Shown here piece by piece: positions 4,333 through 35,993 of a stretch of DNA of 64,000 bases. The notes beneath the pieces are model-generated. The model did no database searches, had not been told where the DNA came from, and saw nothing but the letters and a program-made list of their open reading frames with translations. This DNA comes from an uncultured Clostridia bacterium (GTDB lineage Bacteria > Bacillota > Clostridia > Christensenellales > Borkfalkiaceae), in assembly GCA_947597925.1 (NCBI GenBank), contig CANQFA010000008.1, positions 1,449 to 65,448 on the forward strand, in the 5' to 3' direction. Within the stretch, counting starts at the first letter, position 1, and each line of letters starts with the position of its first letter. The translations under genes were made by a program, and so were the position numbers.

Positions 4333-5154
4333 TCATTCTATGCCGAGACGCTCGAGTGCCTCGGCGGCGTCGGCGTCCCCGTCGTCTGCGGCGCGCTCAT
4401 ACCGGAGGATCGCCTGTTCGAGGTCTTTTTCGGTGCCGATGCCCTCTTCGTAGCATCTGCCCAGTGCGGTCTTCGCCCACAGGCAGTCGCGCTCGGCGGA
4501 GGCGCGGTAGAGCGAAAAGGCCTTCTCGGCGCTCTTCTCCGTCCCGTTGCCCGCTTCGGCGCACACGCCGAGGTAGTACAGGGCAAGCGCATCGCCCTGC
4601 GCGGCGGCCATATGGAGCCAGCGGACGGCCTCTTCGTAGTTCTGCTTGATATAACCTGTCGTCTCGTCGGACATCCCATAGCCGTGGAAATAGAGCATGC
4701 CGAGGTCATATTGTGCCAAAAGGGAGCCCCTTTCGGCGGCCTCCGCAAGCAGGGCGCGCCCCTTTTCGAGGTGTGCACGCATGCCCAGCCCCTGCGAATA
4801 GATGCAGCTGAGCGCATAGAGGGCATCGGCATGTCCGCCCTTCGAGGCCTTTTCGTACCACAGGCGGGCCTCGTTCCATTCGTCCTGCGCGATGCCGCGG
4901 TTATCCCGCTCGAAGATATTTAAGGGCGCGCGGAGATTGGGGCTTCCCGAAGGGATCTGATCGCGGATATAGGCGATCTTCCTCTCTGCCTCCCTCTCGT
5001 AAAAGGCCCCCATGAGGTACTGCGCCTCCGTCTCCCCTCCGTTTGCGCGGGAGAGCAGGGCGGCGAGCGCCCCTTCGTCTTCGGGAAGGTCGAGCTCTAC
5101 GCTCGCCTCCATGCAGAAGGGAACTTTTTCGAGGTTCAGAGTGATGGGCAGCAT
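4333..5154 (-). CDS. Sel1-like repeat (SLR/TPR) protein
   Basis: Repeated A.Y.LG.CY..G.G...D...A..WY..AA motifs. AAGGAG SD upstream of 5154. Confidence 0.8.
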   Translation of the reverse strand: MLPITLNLEKVPFCMEASVELDLPEDEGALAALLSRANGGETEAQYLMGAFYEREAERKIAYIRDQIPSGSPNLRAPLNIFERDNRGIAQDEWNEARLWYEKASKGGHADALYALSCIYSQGLGMRAHLEKGRALLAEAAERGSLLAQYDLGMLYFHGYGMSDETTGYIKQNYEEAVRWLHMAAAQGDALALYYLGVCAEAGNGTEKSAEKAFSLYRASAERDCLWAKTALGRCYEEGIGTEKDLEQAILRYERAADDGDADAAEALERLGIE

Positions 5155-5289
5155 GTTTTTTCTCCTTATGATGCGGACATGGTATGGGCATGTGCGATCA
5201 AACGCGGGATCCCTCGACTTCGCTCGGGATGACAGAAGCAGCCCGCTCGGGATGACATGAGAAGCTTCGCTCGTAATGACGTGAGAAGG

Positions 5290-5707
5290 CTCAATTTGCG
5301 CCGCGCGCTTCTTGCCCGATGAAACGATGAAGAGACAAAGGCAAGTTAAAGCGCTGACGCCAATTTCTATCGCGGATTTCTATGCCCTCAATTGAGATCC
5401 CTCGCTTCGCTCGGGATGACGTGAGAAGGCTCGGGATGACAAAAAAGGCGTCTGATAAATAGAAATCCGCGAAACTTCAATCTTCTCTGAAAAACCAAAA
5501 ACCACGCTTTTTGGTTTTTCCCTCAATTTGCGCCGCGCGCTTCTTGTCTGATGAAACGGCGAAGAGCCAAAGGCAAGTTGAAGCGCTTAAGACAGTTTCT
5601 ATCGCGGATTTCTATGCCCTCAATTGAGCTCCCTCGCTTCGCTCGGGATGACGTGAGAAGGCTCGGGATGACAAAAAAGGCTTCTAATAGATAGAAATCC
5701 GCGAAAC
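5290..5707. repeat. Two copies of a 186-bp structured intergenic repeat (5290-5475 and 5522-5707, period 232 bp), with a degenerate partial copy at about 5205-5289
   Basis: Direct reading shows the copies differ at only a handful of positions. Each contains the palindrome ctcaattgag and a 14-bp long-range inverted repeat (tcgcggatttctat / atagaaatccgcga). Each also has REP-like hairpins (atccc-N11-gggat, gctcgggatgac units). The 46-bp spacer holds an A/T-only hairpin (aaaccaaaaa-ccacgc-tttttggttt). Confidence 0.8.
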
Positions 5708-5709
5708 CC

Positions 5710-7017
5710 TCACAGCACGTATTTCTTCAGATCTCTGTCCTTCGTGATGCTCTTCAGGTGCTCCTCGACATAGGCGCGGTTGACCTCGACCGTGGTCATG
5801 GGGTAGTCGCCGCCCGCATTGTACGAGATATCTTCGAGGAGGGACTCCATCACGGTGTGCAGCCGCCGCGCGCCGATATCTTCGCTCGTCAGGTTGATCT
5901 CCTCGGCGATCTCGGCGATGGCGTCGATGGCGTCGGGCGAAAAGCGAAGGTCGATATTGTCCACGGCGAGCAGGACCGCATATTGCTGAGTGAGGGAATG
6001 CTCGGTATTCGTGAGGATATCGACAAAGTCCTGCTTCGTGAGCGAATGGAGCTCCACGGAGACGGGGAATCTTCCCTGCAGTTCGGGAATGAGGTCCTCC
6101 ACGCGCGACACGTGAAAGGCGCCCGCCGCGATAAAGAGCATGTAGTCCGTCTTCACGGGGCCGTACTTGGTCATGACCGTACTGCCCTCGACGATGGGAA
6201 GGATGTCGCGCTGGACCCCCTCGCGGGAGACATCGGCGCCCGAAGTGTTGCCCTTGCCCGCGATCTTGTCGATCTCATCGATGAAGATGATGCCGTCGTT
6301 TTCGGCGCGGCGGAGGGCCTCGTCGGTGACGGCGTCGTCATCGATGAGCTTTTCCGCTTCCTCGGCAGTGTAGAGCTTCCTGAGCTCCTTTACCGTGAGG
6401 GTGCGCTTCTTGTGCTTGGCGGGGAACATTCCCCCGAGGATGGAGCCGAGATCGATCGCGGCGCCGCCCGGGAGGAGCTCCATGCTCTTGGGCTCGTCTA
6501 AGACATCTGCCTCCAGAGAGAGATTGTCAAACTCCCCTTTTTGCAGCGATGTGAGGAGGTTCTCCTCGAAGAGTTTGCGATCGAGCTCGCCGCGGTCATT
6601 TTTCTTGACCTCGACGAGGAGCTTCAGAATGCGCTGCTCGGCGGCCGCCTTTGCCTTGGCGGAGACCTCCGCCGTCTTTTCATCCTTGACGAGGCGGATG
6701 GCGCACTCCACGAGATCGCGCACCATGCCCTCGACATCCTTGCCGACATAGCCGACTTCGGTATATTTCGTCGCCTCGACCTTGACGAAGGGCGCCTTTA
6801 CGAGCTTTGCGAGCCGCCGTGCGATCTCCGTCTTGCCGACACCCGTGGGCCCCTTCATGATGATGTTTTTGGGCGTGATCTCGTCGCGCAGTTCCTGTGA
6901 GAGCTGTGCGCGGCGATAGCGGTTCCGCAGGGCAATGGCGACCGCCTTTTTGGCCTCGTCCTGCCCGATGATGTGCTTATTGAGTTCGGTTACGATCTGT
7001 TTGGGTGAAAGATCCAT
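5710..7017 (-). CDS. hslU: ATP-dependent protease ATPase subunit HslU (ClpY)
   Basis: MDLSPKQIVTELNKHIIGQDEAKKAVAIALRNRYRR, Walker [16 protein letters not shown]. Start moved to the ATG at 7017 (GAAGGAG SD 8 nt upstream). The track start at 7044 would include the SD. Confidence 0.95.
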   Translation of the reverse strand: MDLSPKQIVTELNKHIIGQDEAKKAVAIALRNRYRRAQLSQELRDEITPKNIIMKGPTGVGKTEIARRLAKLVKAPFVKVEATKYTEVGYVGKDVEGMVRDLVECAIRLVKDEKTAEVSAKAKAAAEQRILKLLVEVKKNDRGELDRKLFEENLLTSLQKGEFDNLSLEADVLDEPKSMELLPGGAAIDLGSILGGMFPAKHKKRTLTVKELRKLYTAEEAEKLIDDDAVTDEALRRAENDGIIFIDEIDKIAGKGNTSGADVSREGVQRDILPIVEGSTVMTKYGPVKTDYMLFIAAGAFHVSRVEDLIPELQGRFPVSVELHSLTKQDFVDILTNTEHSLTQQYAVLLAVDNIDLRFSPDAIDAIAEIAEEINLTSEDIGARRLHTVMESLLEDISYNAGGDYPMTTVEVNRAYVEEHLKSITKDRDLKKYVL

Positions 7018-32621: not shown

Positions 32622-32882
32622 AGCAGACCCTTTGCGATCTGCTCTATTTTACAGTTTTCTTCCGCGAGGGACGAAGAGACGGACCCGCCGCGGGAGCACC
32701 TCTATCTCGATATCTCCCCGCGTCCCCTCCTCGCCGTCAAAGTCCCACACGAGGTTTTTTTGCGTGCTGATGCGGACATGCCTCCCCCGCATGACGTCGA
32801 CCCACCTTCTCCGCCGCCCGATCCCGAAGAGCATGAGGCGGACGAGGGAGAGATAGGAGAGAAATTTTCCGAGGGCGCCCTT
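32622..32882. repeat. Left copy (261 bp) of the duplicated 3' end plus terminator of the dagK-family gene
   Basis: Aligns with 34341-34619. I count 6 mismatches plus one 18-bp indel. Confidence 0.9.
32649..32882 (-). pseudogene. Orphan 3' fragment (last 77 codons) of the DAG-kinase-family lipid kinase gene
   Basis: Encodes KGALGKFLSYLSLVRLMLFGIGRRRRWVDVMRGRHVRISTQKNLVWDFDGEEGTRGDIEIEVLPRRVRLFVPRGRKL, almost identical to the C-terminus of 34386-35282. It retains the native hairpin (32623-32642) and T-tract. Confidence 0.85.
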
Positions 32883-32913
32883 CTGCTTGACAAAATTTAA
32901 GGAAGGTATTAAA

Positions 32914-33291
32914 ATGAGCATAGTTGGCTTTTTGCTCAAGCCGAAAAAAGAAATGGCGAAAAAGGGAACAAGATATGTAAAGGTCGGTAAATACTATCTG
33001 ACTTCCCATGCGCAGAATCGGATCGTTCAAAAGGAAAGGACTATGGATAAGGTCGATGTTTTGGACAATCTGTTTACGAAGCCCAATGCCATTACACAAG
33101 TGAAATACAATAAAAGCGGCAAACCCTCATATGATCGTGTGGGTAAGAGAATTACGACAAGTATCAATCCAACAAACAACTATGTTGCGACTTGTCGACC
33201 TGTAAGCAAAAAAGAAATTAAACAATTCGTTTTGACTGATATCGGAAAAGGAGGAAAAAGGAAATATGTTAAACAAGAGTCCAGAAAGTAA
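32914..33291 (+). CDS. Small basic protein (125 aa) with a DUF4258/RelE-superfamily-like signature; putative toxin
   Basis: AAGGAAGG SD 7 nt before the ATG at 32914. KYYLTSHAQNRIVQKERTMDKVDVLDNLFTKPNAITQ...YDRVGKRITTSINPTNNYVATCRPV matches the DUF4258 pattern x-H-A-x-x-R-x(3)-R-x-[IM]-x(3)-V-x(2)-[VL]...V-[IV]-T-x-Y/R. K/R-rich. Overlaps the next ORF by 26 nt. Confidence 0.6.
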   Translation: MSIVGFLLKPKKEMAKKGTRYVKVGKYYLTSHAQNRIVQKERTMDKVDVLDNLFTKPNAITQVKYNKSGKPSYDRVGKRITTSINPTNNYVATCRPVSKKEIKQFVLTDIGKGGKRKYVKQESRK

Positions 33292-33541
33292 ATTCACGCC
33301 GAGAGCGAAAGAGGAAGCTAAAAAACTTTTAGCCGAAATGAATATAACGGAGTTGAACGACGACAACCTTTATGAGGTCGAAGTTGAGCTTGACACAAGG
33401 GTAAGCGGATTGGTTACGATGGACGAAAGCGAACACCGGCCGATCGATCATGAGCTTTTGGAAATTTACGATACACTGACGGATATTATTCTGGAGCACG
33501 AAGAAGAGATCGATTTTCTAAATAAGCTGTTTTTGGAATAA
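33266..33541 (+). CDS. Small acidic protein, paralogue 1 (91 aa); candidate antitoxin or immunity protein
   Basis: AAAGGAGG SD. Shares F-x(2)-A-x(n)-[ND]-x-[DE]-x-L-Y-[DE] and the C-terminal [DE]-I-D-F-L-N-K-L-F-L with the next two ORFs. Confidence 0.6.
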   Translation: MLNKSPESKFTPRAKEEAKKLLAEMNITELNDDNLYEVEVELDTRVSGLVTMDESEHRPIDHELLEIYDTLTDIILEHEEEIDFLNKLFLE

Positions 33542-33580
33542 AAAGGAGCGGAACGTCATTGAAAAATTTCGGAGGGAATT

Positions 33581-33901
33581 ATGGAAACGACAAAGGTCAA
33601 ATTTTCGCAGTCGGCGGTTGATTTTATTGCGAAGTATATGATTGAAGAGTTTGGAATAACGGGCGAAATCAACGAAGATATGCTGTATGACATATATGAC
33701 ATATATGTTGCGGCAGACGACTACGATTCCTTTTTCGCGACCCGCGAGATTGACCCGCAATTCGTTTTTGACGAAGAAAAATCCAAAGCGGCAGGTGAAT
33801 TTACAGCGGAATACGACAGTGTGGTTTTAAGGGATAAGACGTTTGACTTGGATGACCTCAACCGCCGTTTGGGATTGCGGAAAACAGGCCCAAACGCATA
33901 G
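33581..33901 (+). CDS. Small acidic protein, paralogue 2 (106 aa)
   Basis: GGAGGG SD. FSQSAVDFIAKYM...INEDMLYDIYDI...DLDDLNRRLGLRKTG. Confidence 0.65.
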   Translation: METTKVKFSQSAVDFIAKYMIEEFGITGEINEDMLYDIYDIYVAADDYDSFFATREIDPQFVFDEEKSKAAGEFTAEYDSVVLRDKTFDLDDLNRRLGLRKTGPNA

Positions 33902-33957
33902 TTCCACCATTGACTTGCCAATTCGGCTTGACCGATATCGGAAAAGGAGGCAGCGAA

Positions 33958-34278
33958 ATGAAAAAAAGAAATAAAAAGACGGAACAAGAAACAACGCTCT
34001 TTCCCGTCAGTGAAGAAGCAATTGAATTTATCCGCACATACATCCTTCCCATGAAACATATCGACTATATTGACGAGGATGTATTTTATGATATTTTTGA
34101 TATTGCTGAAAGCTGGGAACTCGATATGATCGACGAAAACGGATTTGACAAGACAGATGATCCGTTTACAGAACGGAATACAATGGGAATGAATTTCGTC
34201 TCTGAAATATCGGGGCAAGATGGCGAGCCGGATCTTGATGACCTCAACCGCCGTTTGGGATTACGGAAAACAAATTAA
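33958..34278 (+). CDS. Small acidic protein, paralogue 3 (106 aa)
   Basis: AAAGGAGG SD before the ATG at 33958 (the track TTG start at 33910 is rejected). FPVSEEAIEFIRTYI...IDEDVFYDIFDI...DLDDLNRRLGLRKTN. Confidence 0.65.
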   Translation: MKKRNKKTEQETTLFPVSEEAIEFIRTYILPMKHIDYIDEDVFYDIFDIAESWELDMIDENGFDKTDDPFTERNTMGMNFVSEISGQDGEPDLDDLNRRLGLRKTN

Positions 34279-34292
34279 CTTCTTTGACTCGA

Positions 34293-34327
34293 CCAAAAGT
34301 ATTTTCAGAAATACTTTTGGTTTTTTA
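34293..34327 (+). terminator. Strong rho-independent terminator closing the cassette
   Basis: ccaaaagtattt-tcag-aaatacttttgg followed by TTTTTTA. Confidence 0.8.
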
Positions 34328-34340
34328 TGATCCCTTTTGG

Positions 34341-34619
34341 AGCAGACCCTTTGCGATCTGCTCTATTTTACAGTTTTCTTCCGCTTTACAGTTTTCTTCC
34401 GCGAGGGACGAAGAGACGGACCCGCCGCGGAAGCACCTCTATCTCGATATCTCCCCGCGTCCCCTCCTCGCCGTCAAAGTCCCACACGAGGTTTTTTTGT
34501 GTGCTGATGCGGACATGCCTCCCTCGCATGACATCGACCCGCCTTCTCCGCCGCCCGATCCCGAAGAGCATGAGGCGGACGAGGGAGAGATAGGATAGAA
34601 ATTTTCCGAGGGCGCCCTT
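34341..34619. repeat. Right copy (279 bp) of the duplicated dagK 3' end. It includes an internal 18-bp tandem duplication (34367-34384 / 34385-34402) spanning the stop codon
   Basis: Direct alignment with 32622-32882. Confidence 0.9.
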
Positions 34620-35282
34620 TCCCCGCTTGAGGACGGCGAGCTCGAGGGTGCCGTCCTGCATGCTGGCGCTGCGGTTGACGGGGAAGCCCGCCACCGACCG
34701 TCCGTTCATGACGAAGACGAGCATGCCGTCCCCCTCGCTCACCCGCTGTCCGCACTCCACGCGCACGGGAAAGCTCTCGAAGGGGAAGCACTTCCCGAGC
34801 CCGCGGAAGAGATAGGCAAACCACCCGAAGGCGCGCTTTTCGCTCTGCGGCGTCTCGTAGGTGATGCGGGTGGGCGTCCCCGCCGCGGCGATATACATGG
34901 CATAGCGGGTGCCGTTGATGCGCATGCAGTCGAGTTCGGCGCTCCTTCCCTTCAGGATGACGTCGATCGCACGGAGGGGATCGCGCGGGATGCCGAGCGA
35001 GCGCGCCACGTCGTTTGCCGTCCCCGCGGGGAGATAGCCGAGCTGGACGCGGGAATCGCCCAATCCCTCGAGCACCCGCTGAAAGGTCCCGTCACCGCCC
35101 GAAAAGACGATGACATCGTAACCCGCGGCGCCCCGCTTTACCCACTCCGTCAGGTCCTCGGCGCTCTCCGTCGCGTGGACATCTACCTCATAGACACGCT
35201 CGAGCTTCTTGGTGATGCGCGCCGCCTTACGCGCGGTCTTGCCCCGCCCGCTCGCGGGATTGTAGAGGAAAAGGCACTTCAT
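34386..35282 (-). CDS. Diacylglycerol kinase family lipid kinase (YegS/DagK-like)
   Basis: MKCLFLYNPASGRGK...VIVFSGGDGTFQRVLEGL...GYLPAGTANDVARSLG motifs. Confidence 0.88.
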   Translation of the reverse strand: MKCLFLYNPASGRGKTARKAARITKKLERVYEVDVHATESAEDLTEWVKRGAAGYDVIVFSGGDGTFQRVLEGLGDSRVQLGYLPAGTANDVARSLGIPRDPLRAIDVILKGRSAELDCMRINGTRYAMYIAAAGTPTRITYETPQSEKRAFGWFAYLFRGLGKCFPFESFPVRVECGQRVSEGDGMLVFVMNGRSVAGFPVNRSASMQDGTLELAVLKRGKGALGKFLSYLSLVRLMLFGIGRRRRRVDVMRGRHVRISTQKNLVWDFDGEEGTRGDIEIEVLPRRVRLFVPRGRKL

Positions 35283-35318
35283 CTGCTTTAGTATTTCCCG
35301 TTCGGTAAGATTTCACGC

Positions 35319-35993
35319 TCAGGCGAAATATTCCCCCGCGTTGAGGACGGAAAAGGCGAGGGCCACCTCGAGATAGCGGACATCTTTGGGAAAGAGGAGG
35401 TCCTCGCTCAGCTCCCGCGCCCGTCTCGCCTCTTGGAGGAGCTCGGCATTCCAGAGCCCGAAGGCGCCCTCCCCGTTGTCTTCCGCAAGCCCCGTGAGCG
35501 TCTTCGCGACCCCGAGAAGGCGCGCCCGCGCCTCCTCTTGCCCGAAGTCGAGCCGCTCGAGCCCATTTGCCGTATCATAGAGAAGGCGGGCACAGCTGTC
35601 GAGGGTGCGGGCATTTGCCTCGATGCGCGCTCTCTCCTTTCCGTCCCGAAGGGGAAAGGGCTCCGTCCTCCTCTCGATGACGCGCACAAATACCCCTCTT
35701 TCGGACATGGTATGGGCAACGAAGGTCGCATCGGCCTCTTCGAAGTAACACGCGAGCACGACGGCCCCCTCCTCTTCCCAGAGATATCCCGCCCCGCCCG
35801 CGGCATAACTTTCGCCCGAGACGGCGCCCGCGGTCGTGCTCTCGCAGTCGCGCACGAGAAAATAGTAGCAGAGGCCCGCGTCGACTTTCGCCCCCGCAGA
35901 GCCGAAGACGCCCGCGAAGAAGGTGATGAGAAGGATGAAGAGAAAGCATGCGGCGGAGAGGACGGATCCGCCGCGCGGAAGGCGGAATTTCAT
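35319..35993 (-). CDS. Membrane-anchored hypothetical protein (possible SPOR-like domain)
   Basis: MKFRLPRGGSVLSAACFLFILLITFFAGVF TM anchor. The start is uncertain (poor SD spacing). Confidence 0.5.
   Translation of the reverse strand: MKFRLPRGGSVLSAACFLFILLITFFAGVFGSAGAKVDAGLCYYFLVRDCESTTAGAVSGESYAAGGAGYLWEEEGAVVLACYFEEADATFVAHTMSERGVFVRVIERRTEPFPLRDGKERARIEANARTLDSCARLLYDTANGLERLDFGQEEARARLLGVAKTLTGLAEDNGEGAFGLWNAELLQEARRARELSEDLLFPKDVRYLEVALAFSVLNAGEYFA

Follow-up and report, generated by a model that had tools for sequence, protein, structure and literature searches.

The DUF4258 family (PF14076), with about 6,000 Pfam members (PMC11980606), appears in toxin-antitoxin pairs and as the warhead of toxins delivered by phages, type VI secretion systems (T6SS), Rhs proteins and contact-dependent inhibition (CDI) systems. 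A toxin of the same broad fold class is found in the CdiA-CT/CdiI pair of E. coli NC101 (5I4R, 5I4Q), in which an experimentally shown, EF-Tu-dependent BECR tRNase with essential Arg and His residues (the catalytic Arg200 and His248) is neutralised by a small immunity protein of its own (PMC5737660). In HigBA, BrnTA and gp49-HTH a BECR-fold toxin is encoded in front of its antitoxin, in overlapping or abutting frames on mobile DNA, and in omega-epsilon-zeta, PaaR-PaaA-ParE, DriD-BapE, CapW-CBASS, BrxR-BREX and WYL1-Cas13d a dedicated ribbon-helix-helix (RHH) or WYL protein stands beside a toxic effector, WYL1 being itself an accessory factor of an RNase. Both the superfamily and the logic of a small BECR toxin with a dedicated immunity protein and orphan immunity genes are already known. 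Here we describe a cassette that lies in a stretch of 64,000 nucleotides (nt) from an uncultured Clostridia bacterium (contig CANQFA010000008.1), referred to as the window. It consists of P1, which encodes a basic protein of 125 amino acids (aa), and three genes for acidic proteins, P2, P3 and P4. The best overall explanation, to which we assign a probability of roughly 0.65, is that P1 is a toxin and P2 its immunity protein, and that both sit on a truncated derivative of a larger WYL-containing module together with two orphan immunity genes, P3 and P4. What is new is a clade of P1-like proteins invisible to Pfam, their acidic partner family, the association of both with an RHH-WYL protein in a module of ~2 kb bounded by inverted repeats, and the apparently disarmed, immunity-rich derivative in the window. 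Coordinates without a prefix are positions in the window and labels of the form L001 denote related genome loci.

An earlier note on this DNA had picked out the product of 32914-33291 as a small basic protein at the head of a cassette, and its sequence is exactly as quoted there. The frame runs from an ATG at 32914 to a TAA at 33289-33291, and a Shine-Dalgarno sequence, AAGGAAGG, lies upstream of the ATG at 32899-32906. A listing of open reading frames takes the same frame back to a TTG at 32887 (134 aa), and it is this longer form that is on record, an exact database look-up of the 125-aa product having returned nothing; the alignment of 53 homologues supports the start at 32914 (MSI...). The protein is indeed basic, with a computed isoelectric point (pI) of 10.3 (9.5-11.2 across the toxin family), and it does lead the cassette, a block of low G+C content (~32883-34340; 36-48 % inside DNA of 58-70 %) with four open reading frames on the same strand. 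Its homologues form 110 protein clusters at E<=0.01, none with a functional name (a few are labelled only 'hypothetical protein') and none with a precomputed Pfam domain. Among species-representative genomes a relative of P1 is encoded at 44 loci, and nearly all of the hosts are metagenome-assembled genomes from the human, rabbit or ruminant gut that carry the label Christensenellaceae, Christensenella, Clostridia or Eubacteriales. Against its four nearest relatives P1 has a ratio of non-synonymous to synonymous substitution (dN/dS) of 0.10-0.19. Across 32708-35846 the window is 100 % identical to an ENA contig of independent assembly, and a Logan contig is 98.9 % identical, so the arrangement of the cassette is not peculiar to one assembly. 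P1 is no chance open reading frame; the gene is real.

The affinity of P1 emerges from comparisons of its whole family. A profile of the family, run against 1.84 billion representative proteins, gave 187 matches at E<=1e-3, the distant ones being the extreme C-termini of long proteins. Ten of these proteins were scanned; at their N-termini they carry phage portal, Mu F, minor capsid protein 2, VgrG/GPD, RHS or TPR regions, and Pfam places DUF4258 at the matched C-terminus in eight, four of them above the gathering cut-off (28.4-32.6 bits against 25). When the P1 family was aligned by hhalign with 34 C-terminal domains, 27 of which match PF14076 (best E 1.6e-10), the alignment extended over 93 columns with a probability of 99.6 % and an E value of 8.8e-24. 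In this alignment H32, R36, R42 and N85-P86 of P1 fall on the invariant or near-invariant H, R, R and N-P of the 34 domains, and T93 also lies on a conserved column. Within the P1 family itself (53 members aligned) H32, Q34, Y73 and R75 are invariant, and A33, N35, R36 and R42 are at least 90 % conserved, giving a motif S-H-A-Q-N-R. P1 and DUF4258 have in common a helix with H-x3-R...R, a hairpin with P-S-x-x-x-I-G, then I-N-P and V-x-T. The signature that the earlier note had matched to DUF4258 holds for H-A-x-x-R and V-A-T and fails for R-x3-R and L-x2-P, since P1 has small insertions relative to DUF4258 domains and reads R36-x5-R42 and L53-x3-P57. In addition to these two insertions P1 has a conserved N-terminal extension of 19-27 residues, well ordered in the model from residue 1 to about 19, and a lysine-rich tail.

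The predicted structure points in the same direction. An AlphaFold2 model built from the family alignment is confident, with a predicted local distance difference test score (pLDDT) of 90.9 and a predicted template-modelling score (pTM) of 0.82, and shows an alpha/beta protein in which N-terminal helices pack on an antiparallel sheet. In a Foldseek search of the PDB the top three matches are to CdiA-CT of E. coli NC101 (5i4r/5i4q; probability 0.99, template-modelling (TM) score 0.58-0.59 on the target), the best structural match and a BECR-fold protein, and colicin E5 (3ao9), RelE (1wmi) and colicin D (1tfo) follow at ranks 11-29. Among predicted viral structures the model matches phage proteins at their C-terminal domains (E 1e-6 to 5e-4) and also a phage protein named 'DUF4258 domain-containing'. 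The profile search, the hhalign comparison and the modelled structure together support the DUF4258/RelE-type family that had been guessed from the pattern of residues, and P1 is best described as a divergent, Pfam-invisible branch of the DUF4258/BECR superfamily. To call P1 an RNase toxin is a further step, a prediction suggested by the fold, the conserved His and Arg residues and the domain architectures of the relatives. A motif scan of viral contigs and tblastn searches of INPHARED phages and PLSDB plasmids found no relatives of the P1 family, so a phage or plasmid origin is not supported.

The 26-nt overlap of P1 with the first acidic frame, part of the toxin-first arrangement that the earlier note had proposed, is as described (33266-33541 begins 26 nt before the P1 stop), and the tight linkage to an acidic partner is conserved across related loci. 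Of 48 loci the great majority have an acidic open reading frame directly behind the toxin gene, spaced at -26 to +13 nt, and across 40 loci the product of this gene is an acidic protein of 90-113 aa with a pI of 4.1-4.9. P2 (pI ~4.3) has 81-95 % identity with the partners encoded behind the P1 orthologues of L001, L005, L006 and L007, and the P1-P2 block as a whole (32886-33543) is ~87-90 % identical at the nucleotide level to the orthologous blocks of these four loci. P2 carries a C-terminal D-x-x-F-L-N motif and has a dN/dS of 0.05-0.11. On this evidence we take P2 to be the cognate partner of P1.

The two remaining genes appear to belong elsewhere. P3 (dN/dS 0.09-0.10) is 91 % and 86 % identical in amino acid sequence to the products of the genes that immediately follow the toxin genes of L023 and L030, whose toxins are 46 % and 45 % identical to P1, while P4 (dN/dS 0.08-0.22) is 93, 93 and 83 % identical to the genes downstream of the toxins of L029, L043 and L041, which are 41-44 % identical to P1. 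Over all four genes of the cassette dN/dS ranges from 0.05 to 0.22. P3 and P4 have a common C-terminal DLDDLNRRLGLRKT, and the partners, P2, P3 and P4 included, form one family with a conserved N-terminal helix region and a C-terminal motif D-L-D-D-L-N-x-R-L-G-L, the Asn of which is invariant. In front of P4 stands a 32-nt segment (33919-33950) that is a direct repeat of 33223-33254 (91 % identity) and 97 % identical to the last 32-nt region of the L001 toxin gene. Pairwise identities of toxins and of partners are correlated over 741 locus pairs (r = 0.82), and the toxins divide into two main groups, each with co-varying partners. P3 and P4 accordingly read as orphan immunity genes for two other toxin subtypes and the window cassette as a mosaic. 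Further orphans are found in L006, which has an intact P4-like gene, and in L001, which has a P3-like pseudogene. In L018 (3196-3804, 202 aa) and L022 (5001-5657, 218 aa) toxin and partner are joined in a single frame, through either a natural fusion of toxin and immunity protein or a frameshift in sequencing. L038 contains, after its first toxin-immunity pair, a second, truncated toxin copy with its own promoter and start block (5590-5930), so that cassettes can stand in tandem arrays.

This arrangement, adjacent genes for a small predicted toxin and a protein partner, is the linkage expected of a type II toxin-antitoxin system. A small neutralising partner, predicted here for P1, is also a feature of DUF4258 toxins. 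The antitoxins of DUF4258 pairs are reported to be of MqsA or HicB type, in contrast to the partner of P1, which belongs to a new acidic family with no detected DNA-binding domain: no helix-turn-helix (HTH), RHH or AbrB family was found in 40 partner proteins scanned, and direct searches with P2-P4 against Pfam (E<=10), NCBIfam, PHROGs and PADLOC returned nothing usable. The same difference separates the P1-P2 pair from HigBA, BrnTA and gp49-HTH, whose antitoxins are autoregulating HTH or RHH proteins; P2-type partners have no detectable domain of this sort, and P1-type modules encode instead a separate, divergent RHH-WYL protein. From CdiA-CT/CdiI of NC101 the pair differs in that P1 has no sequence similarity to CdiA-CT and no CdiA delivery region, and in that the immunity proteins are unrelated.

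We suggest that P1 is most likely a metal-independent endoribonuclease that would arrest growth by cutting translation-related RNA (tRNA, rRNA or mRNA), with catalysis depending on the conserved H32/R36/R42 cluster and on the family-specific Q34, Y73 and R75. P2 would be made from the same transcript, starting inside the end of P1, and would neutralise P1 by direct binding, and P3 and P4 would defend the cell against toxins of two other subtypes. Both may have been stacked behind the P1-P2 pair by recombination at short conserved blocks, one comprising the toxin 3' end with a ribosome-binding site and another the end of the immunity genes that codes for DLNRRLGL. It can be objected that no member of DUF4258 has been demonstrated to be toxic or catalytic (PMC11980606), that P1 is very basic with a lysine-rich tail, and that, in elements with inverted repeats and without a recognisable transposase, some of the module proteins might serve mobility. 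P1 might then be a harmless, basic BECR-fold protein that binds nucleic acid, in RNA binding or in maintenance of the element, and the acidic proteins its chaperones or regulators. The invariant or near-invariant set of His, Arg, Arg, Tyr and Arg resembles a catalytic site rather than a binding surface, however, the domain serves as a C-terminal warhead in polymorphic toxin architectures, and one-to-one co-variation together with orphan partners fits the neutralisation of something harmful. We therefore consider a harmless P1 quite improbable.

If P1 is a toxin, it has to be asked where it acts. Relatives of the domain form the C-terminal ends of proteins of the RHS, VgrG/GPD, portal and MuF types, and also of CdiA (PMC11630599), and loci for contact-dependent competition typically contain orphan immunity genes in stacks. 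In orphan arrays of CDI, Rhs and T6SS loci non-resident immunity genes follow a complete pair and are separated by leftover toxin 3' ends, as in the window. Moreover, toxin subtypes that are only 41-46 % identical over the rest of the protein have in common, at the DNA level, a conserved block of the first 17 codons and 42 nt of upstream DNA, which resembles a constant N-terminus in front of a variable toxin part. P1 could thus be an interbacterial effector that is exported, with P2 shielding the producer and P3 and P4 shielding it against the toxins of competitors. P1 is just 125 aa long, however, and its residues 1-27 pack onto the domain with a pLDDT of 85-91. The earlier note had seen no signal peptide or secretion-associated N-terminal domain in it, and we likewise detected neither these nor LXG, WXG, PAAR, RHS or any other trafficking domain. 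In the loci inspected no secretion genes lie beside relatives of P1, the usual neighbour being of an intracellular nucleic-acid-sensing type. Unlike the CDI, Rhs and T6SS arrays, the window has no large delivery protein upstream, the whole is a 1.5-kb island and its 'constant region' is ~90 nt. Judged as a polymorphic toxin locus, the cassette appears to offer a diversified toxin with matching and orphan immunity genes, and no trafficking domain or secretion apparatus was seen. Export of P1 is in our view unlikely.

The usual neighbour is part of a larger module found in most related loci. At 34 of 48 loci the toxin gene has on its upstream side, at a constant interval of ~200 bp, a divergently oriented gene for a protein of 252 aa (for example L001:5031-5798 and L002:5019-5774, both on the minus strand, and 32 further loci), and in some loci this gene is followed by an overlapping open reading frame for a lysine-rich, basic peptide of 43-49 aa. 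The four-gene unit is recovered in further loci when the search begins from the 252-aa protein, whose family is well conserved and comprises more than 339 clusters. By sequence this protein has no match in Pfam, and searches of the PDB with sequence profiles of the P1, partner and neighbour families gave matches at chance level only. Its AlphaFold model (pLDDT 81.9) begins with an RHH-like region and contains, at 163-222, a five-stranded barrel, and over its full length it matches the Cas13d accessory protein WYL1 (6OAW; E 1.5e-7, TM 0.61-0.64 on the query), followed in the Foldseek search by the WYL domains of DriD (4.6e-5), PafBC, BrxR (5e-4) and CapW. The modelled structure identifies it as an RHH-WYL protein, in which an SH3-like WYL beta-barrel is joined to a DNA-binding domain. 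A recombinase or transposase, which we also considered for this gene, was ruled out, since the model is that of an RHH-WYL protein without a catalytic domain. In L003 the RHH-WYL gene is replaced by one for a 203-aa protein (5146-5757, minus strand) with a HEMRHY (HExxH-like) motif and a weak PADLOC match (E 0.011) to CapP, the metalloprotease partner of CapW-type regulators.

The RHH-WYL gene is the likely regulator of the module. Like WYL1, DriD, CapW and BrxR it may sense a nucleic-acid ligand, and it would then control the toxin or modulate it directly. It differs from DriD, CapW and BrxR, which have a winged HTH, in having an RHH domain, and the effector it accompanies, a 125-aa BECR protein with an immunity protein, is unlike those of the systems listed above. 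The complete module would on this model be a portable, signal-controlled toxin-immunity unit that could serve in abortive infection or in addiction.

Complete modules are ~2 kb long, sit between differing housekeeping genes and have a G+C content below that of their flanks in nearly all loci, the hosts ranging over ~32-63 % with the exception of two of 25 %. Terminal inverted repeats were detected in a subset of loci. Those of the rabbit-gut group and L039 are ~21 nt long and present at both ends (for example GAATCCCTATGAAAGACGCAC and GATTCCCTATGGAATACGCCC), with a core, TCCCTATG, of the form TCCCTATGGRA at both ends of L023 (3759-3772 and 5694-5707), L029 (3758-3771 and 5694-5707), L030 and L039; a second type, GGAAGAGCGCATA, occurs in L002 and L011. 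No transposase is recognisable in or near the modules, and they look like cassettes mobilised in trans, comparable in their ~21-nt inverted repeats and occasional direct repeats to mobile insertion cassettes, which are transposase-less and bounded by inverted repeats. Terminator hairpins of the host lie directly outside the module ends. Direct repeats of host DNA, of 12, 20, 27, 32, 37, 51, 99 and 261 bp with copies 91-97 % identical, flank the element in the window and in L010, L005, L041, L044, L035, L008 and L001, and usually begin in or beside an intrinsic terminator hairpin; most loci have no detectable flanking duplication. IS1634 and IS1549 make target duplications of variable length, 8-514 bp (PMC2266710), and the modules resemble them in this variability, differing in the imperfect identity of the copies and in the lack of a detectable duplication at most loci. 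A long target duplication of the IS1634 kind and Campbell-type recombination of a circle carrying host DNA are candidate origins of the repeats. That they are att sites of a site-specific integrase was ruled out, their sequence and length differing from locus to locus and most loci being without them.

The window copy has lost half of such a module (Table 1). It is inserted at the 3' end of a gene of the DAGK/YegS family, a segment that the insertion duplicated, and reaches to 34340, the base of the hairpin that terminates the DAGK gene. The flanking repeat copies are identical over 44 nt and 97 % identical over 235 nt; the left one translates to the C-terminus of the 298-aa DAGK_cat protein and retains a minus-strand terminator at 32645-32620. 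Assemblies break at the locus because of the 261-bp duplication. In the right copy only, just 3' of the DAGK stop, an 18-bp unit, TTTACAGTTTTCTTCCGC, is repeated in tandem (34359-34394). The left junction was placed by aligning the window with 13 related loci, and in blastn homology to the elements begins at 32872-32886. To the left of the junction the left inverted repeat, the 43-aa open reading frame, the RHH-WYL gene and the upstream promoter are absent, and tblastn found no copy of the 252-aa and 43-aa neighbour proteins within the window. The absent RHH-WYL neighbour, the deleted native upstream promoter and the orphan status of P3 and P4 go beyond what the earlier note had remarked on. 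An Rfam scan of the whole window gave no match. We propose that a deletion or an illegitimate join at the 9-bp microhomology removed the regulator half together with the upstream promoter.

Table 1. Positions of the cassette genes and of neighbouring features in the window
Feature	Position	Strand	Remarks
P1	32914..33291	+	125-aa basic protein; divergent DUF4258-superfamily BECR-fold putative endoribonuclease toxin
P2	33266..33541	+	91-aa acidic protein, predicted cognate immunity/antitoxin partner of P1; own GGAGG; starts 26 nt inside P1
P3	33581..33901	+	106-aa acidic protein; predicted orphan immunity gene, cognate to another toxin subtype
Toxin 3'-end remnant with ribosome-binding site of P4	33919..33950	+	probable recombination scar before P4
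P4	33958..34278	+	106-aa acidic protein; predicted orphan immunity gene, cognate to a third toxin subtype
Left direct-repeat copy	32622..32882		displaced second copy of the DAGK/YegS-family gene's final 78 codons with the terminator (261 bp)
Left junction	32874..32882	+	9-bp microhomology GGCGCCCTT, common to the DAGK 3' end and the P1 5' leader of complete elements
Promoter-like TTGACA-17 nt-TAAAAT	32887..32915	+	11 of 12 consensus matches; Shine-Dalgarno in spacer; overlaps P1 ATG
Intrinsic terminator closing the cassette	34291..34322	+	14-bp stem and T run; position conserved at the right end of related elements
Degenerate inner part of right terminal inverted repeat	34329..34340	+	GATCCCTTTTGG, consensus GATTCCCTATGG
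Right direct-repeat copy	34341..34619		gives the DAGK-family gene its functional 3' end and its terminator; 18-bp tandem duplication inside
DAGK_cat/YegS_C lipid-kinase-family host gene	34386..35282	-	Pfam DAGK_cat E 4.2e-31, YegS_C E 5.8e-12; outside the cassette

The loss of the upstream promoter bears on what the cassette can express. An extended -10 promoter near -88, present in at least 18 loci, is gone from the window, and the site at 32887-32915 is the sole promoter-like site that remains upstream of the cassette. An equivalent near-consensus sigma-70-type element (TTGAC[AT]-17-TA[TA]AAT, often with an extended TG) lies at the start codon in 40 of 46 loci and ends at the ATG or 2 nt into it, and the next in-frame ATG, M14, with its surrounding A-rich DNA, is almost invariant even across distant subtypes. 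A promoter in this position would start its transcript a few bases inside P1, without the Shine-Dalgarno sequence and the first ATG and with the immunity genes kept. Two transcription starts are predicted, at about -52 and about +7 relative to the ATG. As a transcript from the promoter-like site left in the window would start just inside P1, it is mainly the three immunity proteins that the window cassette may express.

This raises the question whether the cassette has any function at all. The window copy has neither the regulator half nor the left inverted repeat nor the upstream promoter, and its right inverted repeat survives only in degenerate form; orphans in related loci have become pseudogenes, and pairwise dN/dS cannot isolate the window's own lineage. 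The cassette might be a decaying remnant whose frames are intact through recent arrival and not through selection. Yet all four frames are intact with every conserved residue present, they still lie between a strong promoter-like site and a terminator, and the same arrangement is found in other assemblies; the repeat copies differ by 3 % and by the 18-bp indel, a divergence that, if it arose after insertion, implies long residence without loss of a frame. We think a functionless remnant rather unlikely, and prefer the explanation of a truncated module in which the toxin-immunity pair and the orphan immunity genes are retained.

Several of our results weigh against that explanation. The direct comparison of P1 with Pfam, which the earlier note had proposed as a check, came out negative, P1 staying below the gathering cut-off of PF14076 (25 bits) and matching no family in HMMER even at E<=10, and there was no match of any weight in NCBIfam, PHROG or PADLOC. 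The structural matches to CdiA-CT have E values of 0.016-0.024 and a TM score of only 0.44 on the query, which is low because P1 has N- and C-terminal extensions, and they give support at the level of the fold only. The conserved His lies at the start of helix 1 in P1 and near the C-terminus in CdiA-CT NC101, so the active sites of the two proteins need not be equivalent. For DUF4258 itself the activity is listed as 'Unknown' (PMC11980606) or as 'tRNase (?)' (PMC11630599), and DUF4258 pairs are usually antitoxin-first (PMC11980606) where the P1 pair is toxin-first. For the partner family no relative with a known structure or function was detected in Pfam or the PDB. Finally, the window copy is without the regulator and the upstream promoter, and the remaining promoter-like site would exclude the start codon of P1, so that P1 may not be made here.

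A wider picture can be drawn from these observations, and we offer it tentatively, as a possibility on the doubtful side. The modules would be an undescribed class of miniature, transposase-less cassettes of ~2 kb in Christensenellales-like gut Clostridia, bounded by inverted repeats, that insert at intrinsic terminators with duplications of a few bp to >260 bp. Each would carry a full signal-controlled unit for suicide or defence, made up of an RHH-WYL sensor similar to WYL1, a basic peptide of 43 aa, a DUF4258-type RNase and its immunity protein, with a conserved second promoter, starting inside the toxin gene, that gives constitutive immunity alongside a regulated toxin. Hosts would disarm such cassettes by loss of the sensor and promoter and would collect immunity subtypes, and the window would represent the end state.

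The P1 clade, seen by none of Pfam, NCBIfam, PHROGs and PADLOC, is widespread among uncultured Clostridia of the human, rabbit and ruminant gut. It offers a compact test system, with a putative toxin of 125 aa, immunity proteins that are 91-106 aa long and, for questions of specificity, immunity genes that are naturally non-cognate. The link to an RHH-WYL protein suggests a route by which a small RNase toxin may be placed under nucleic-acid sensing. For annotation, the P1 family and the acidic partner family deserve models of their own, and stacks of small acidic open reading frames behind a small basic one may, in such genomes, be read as immunity arrays.

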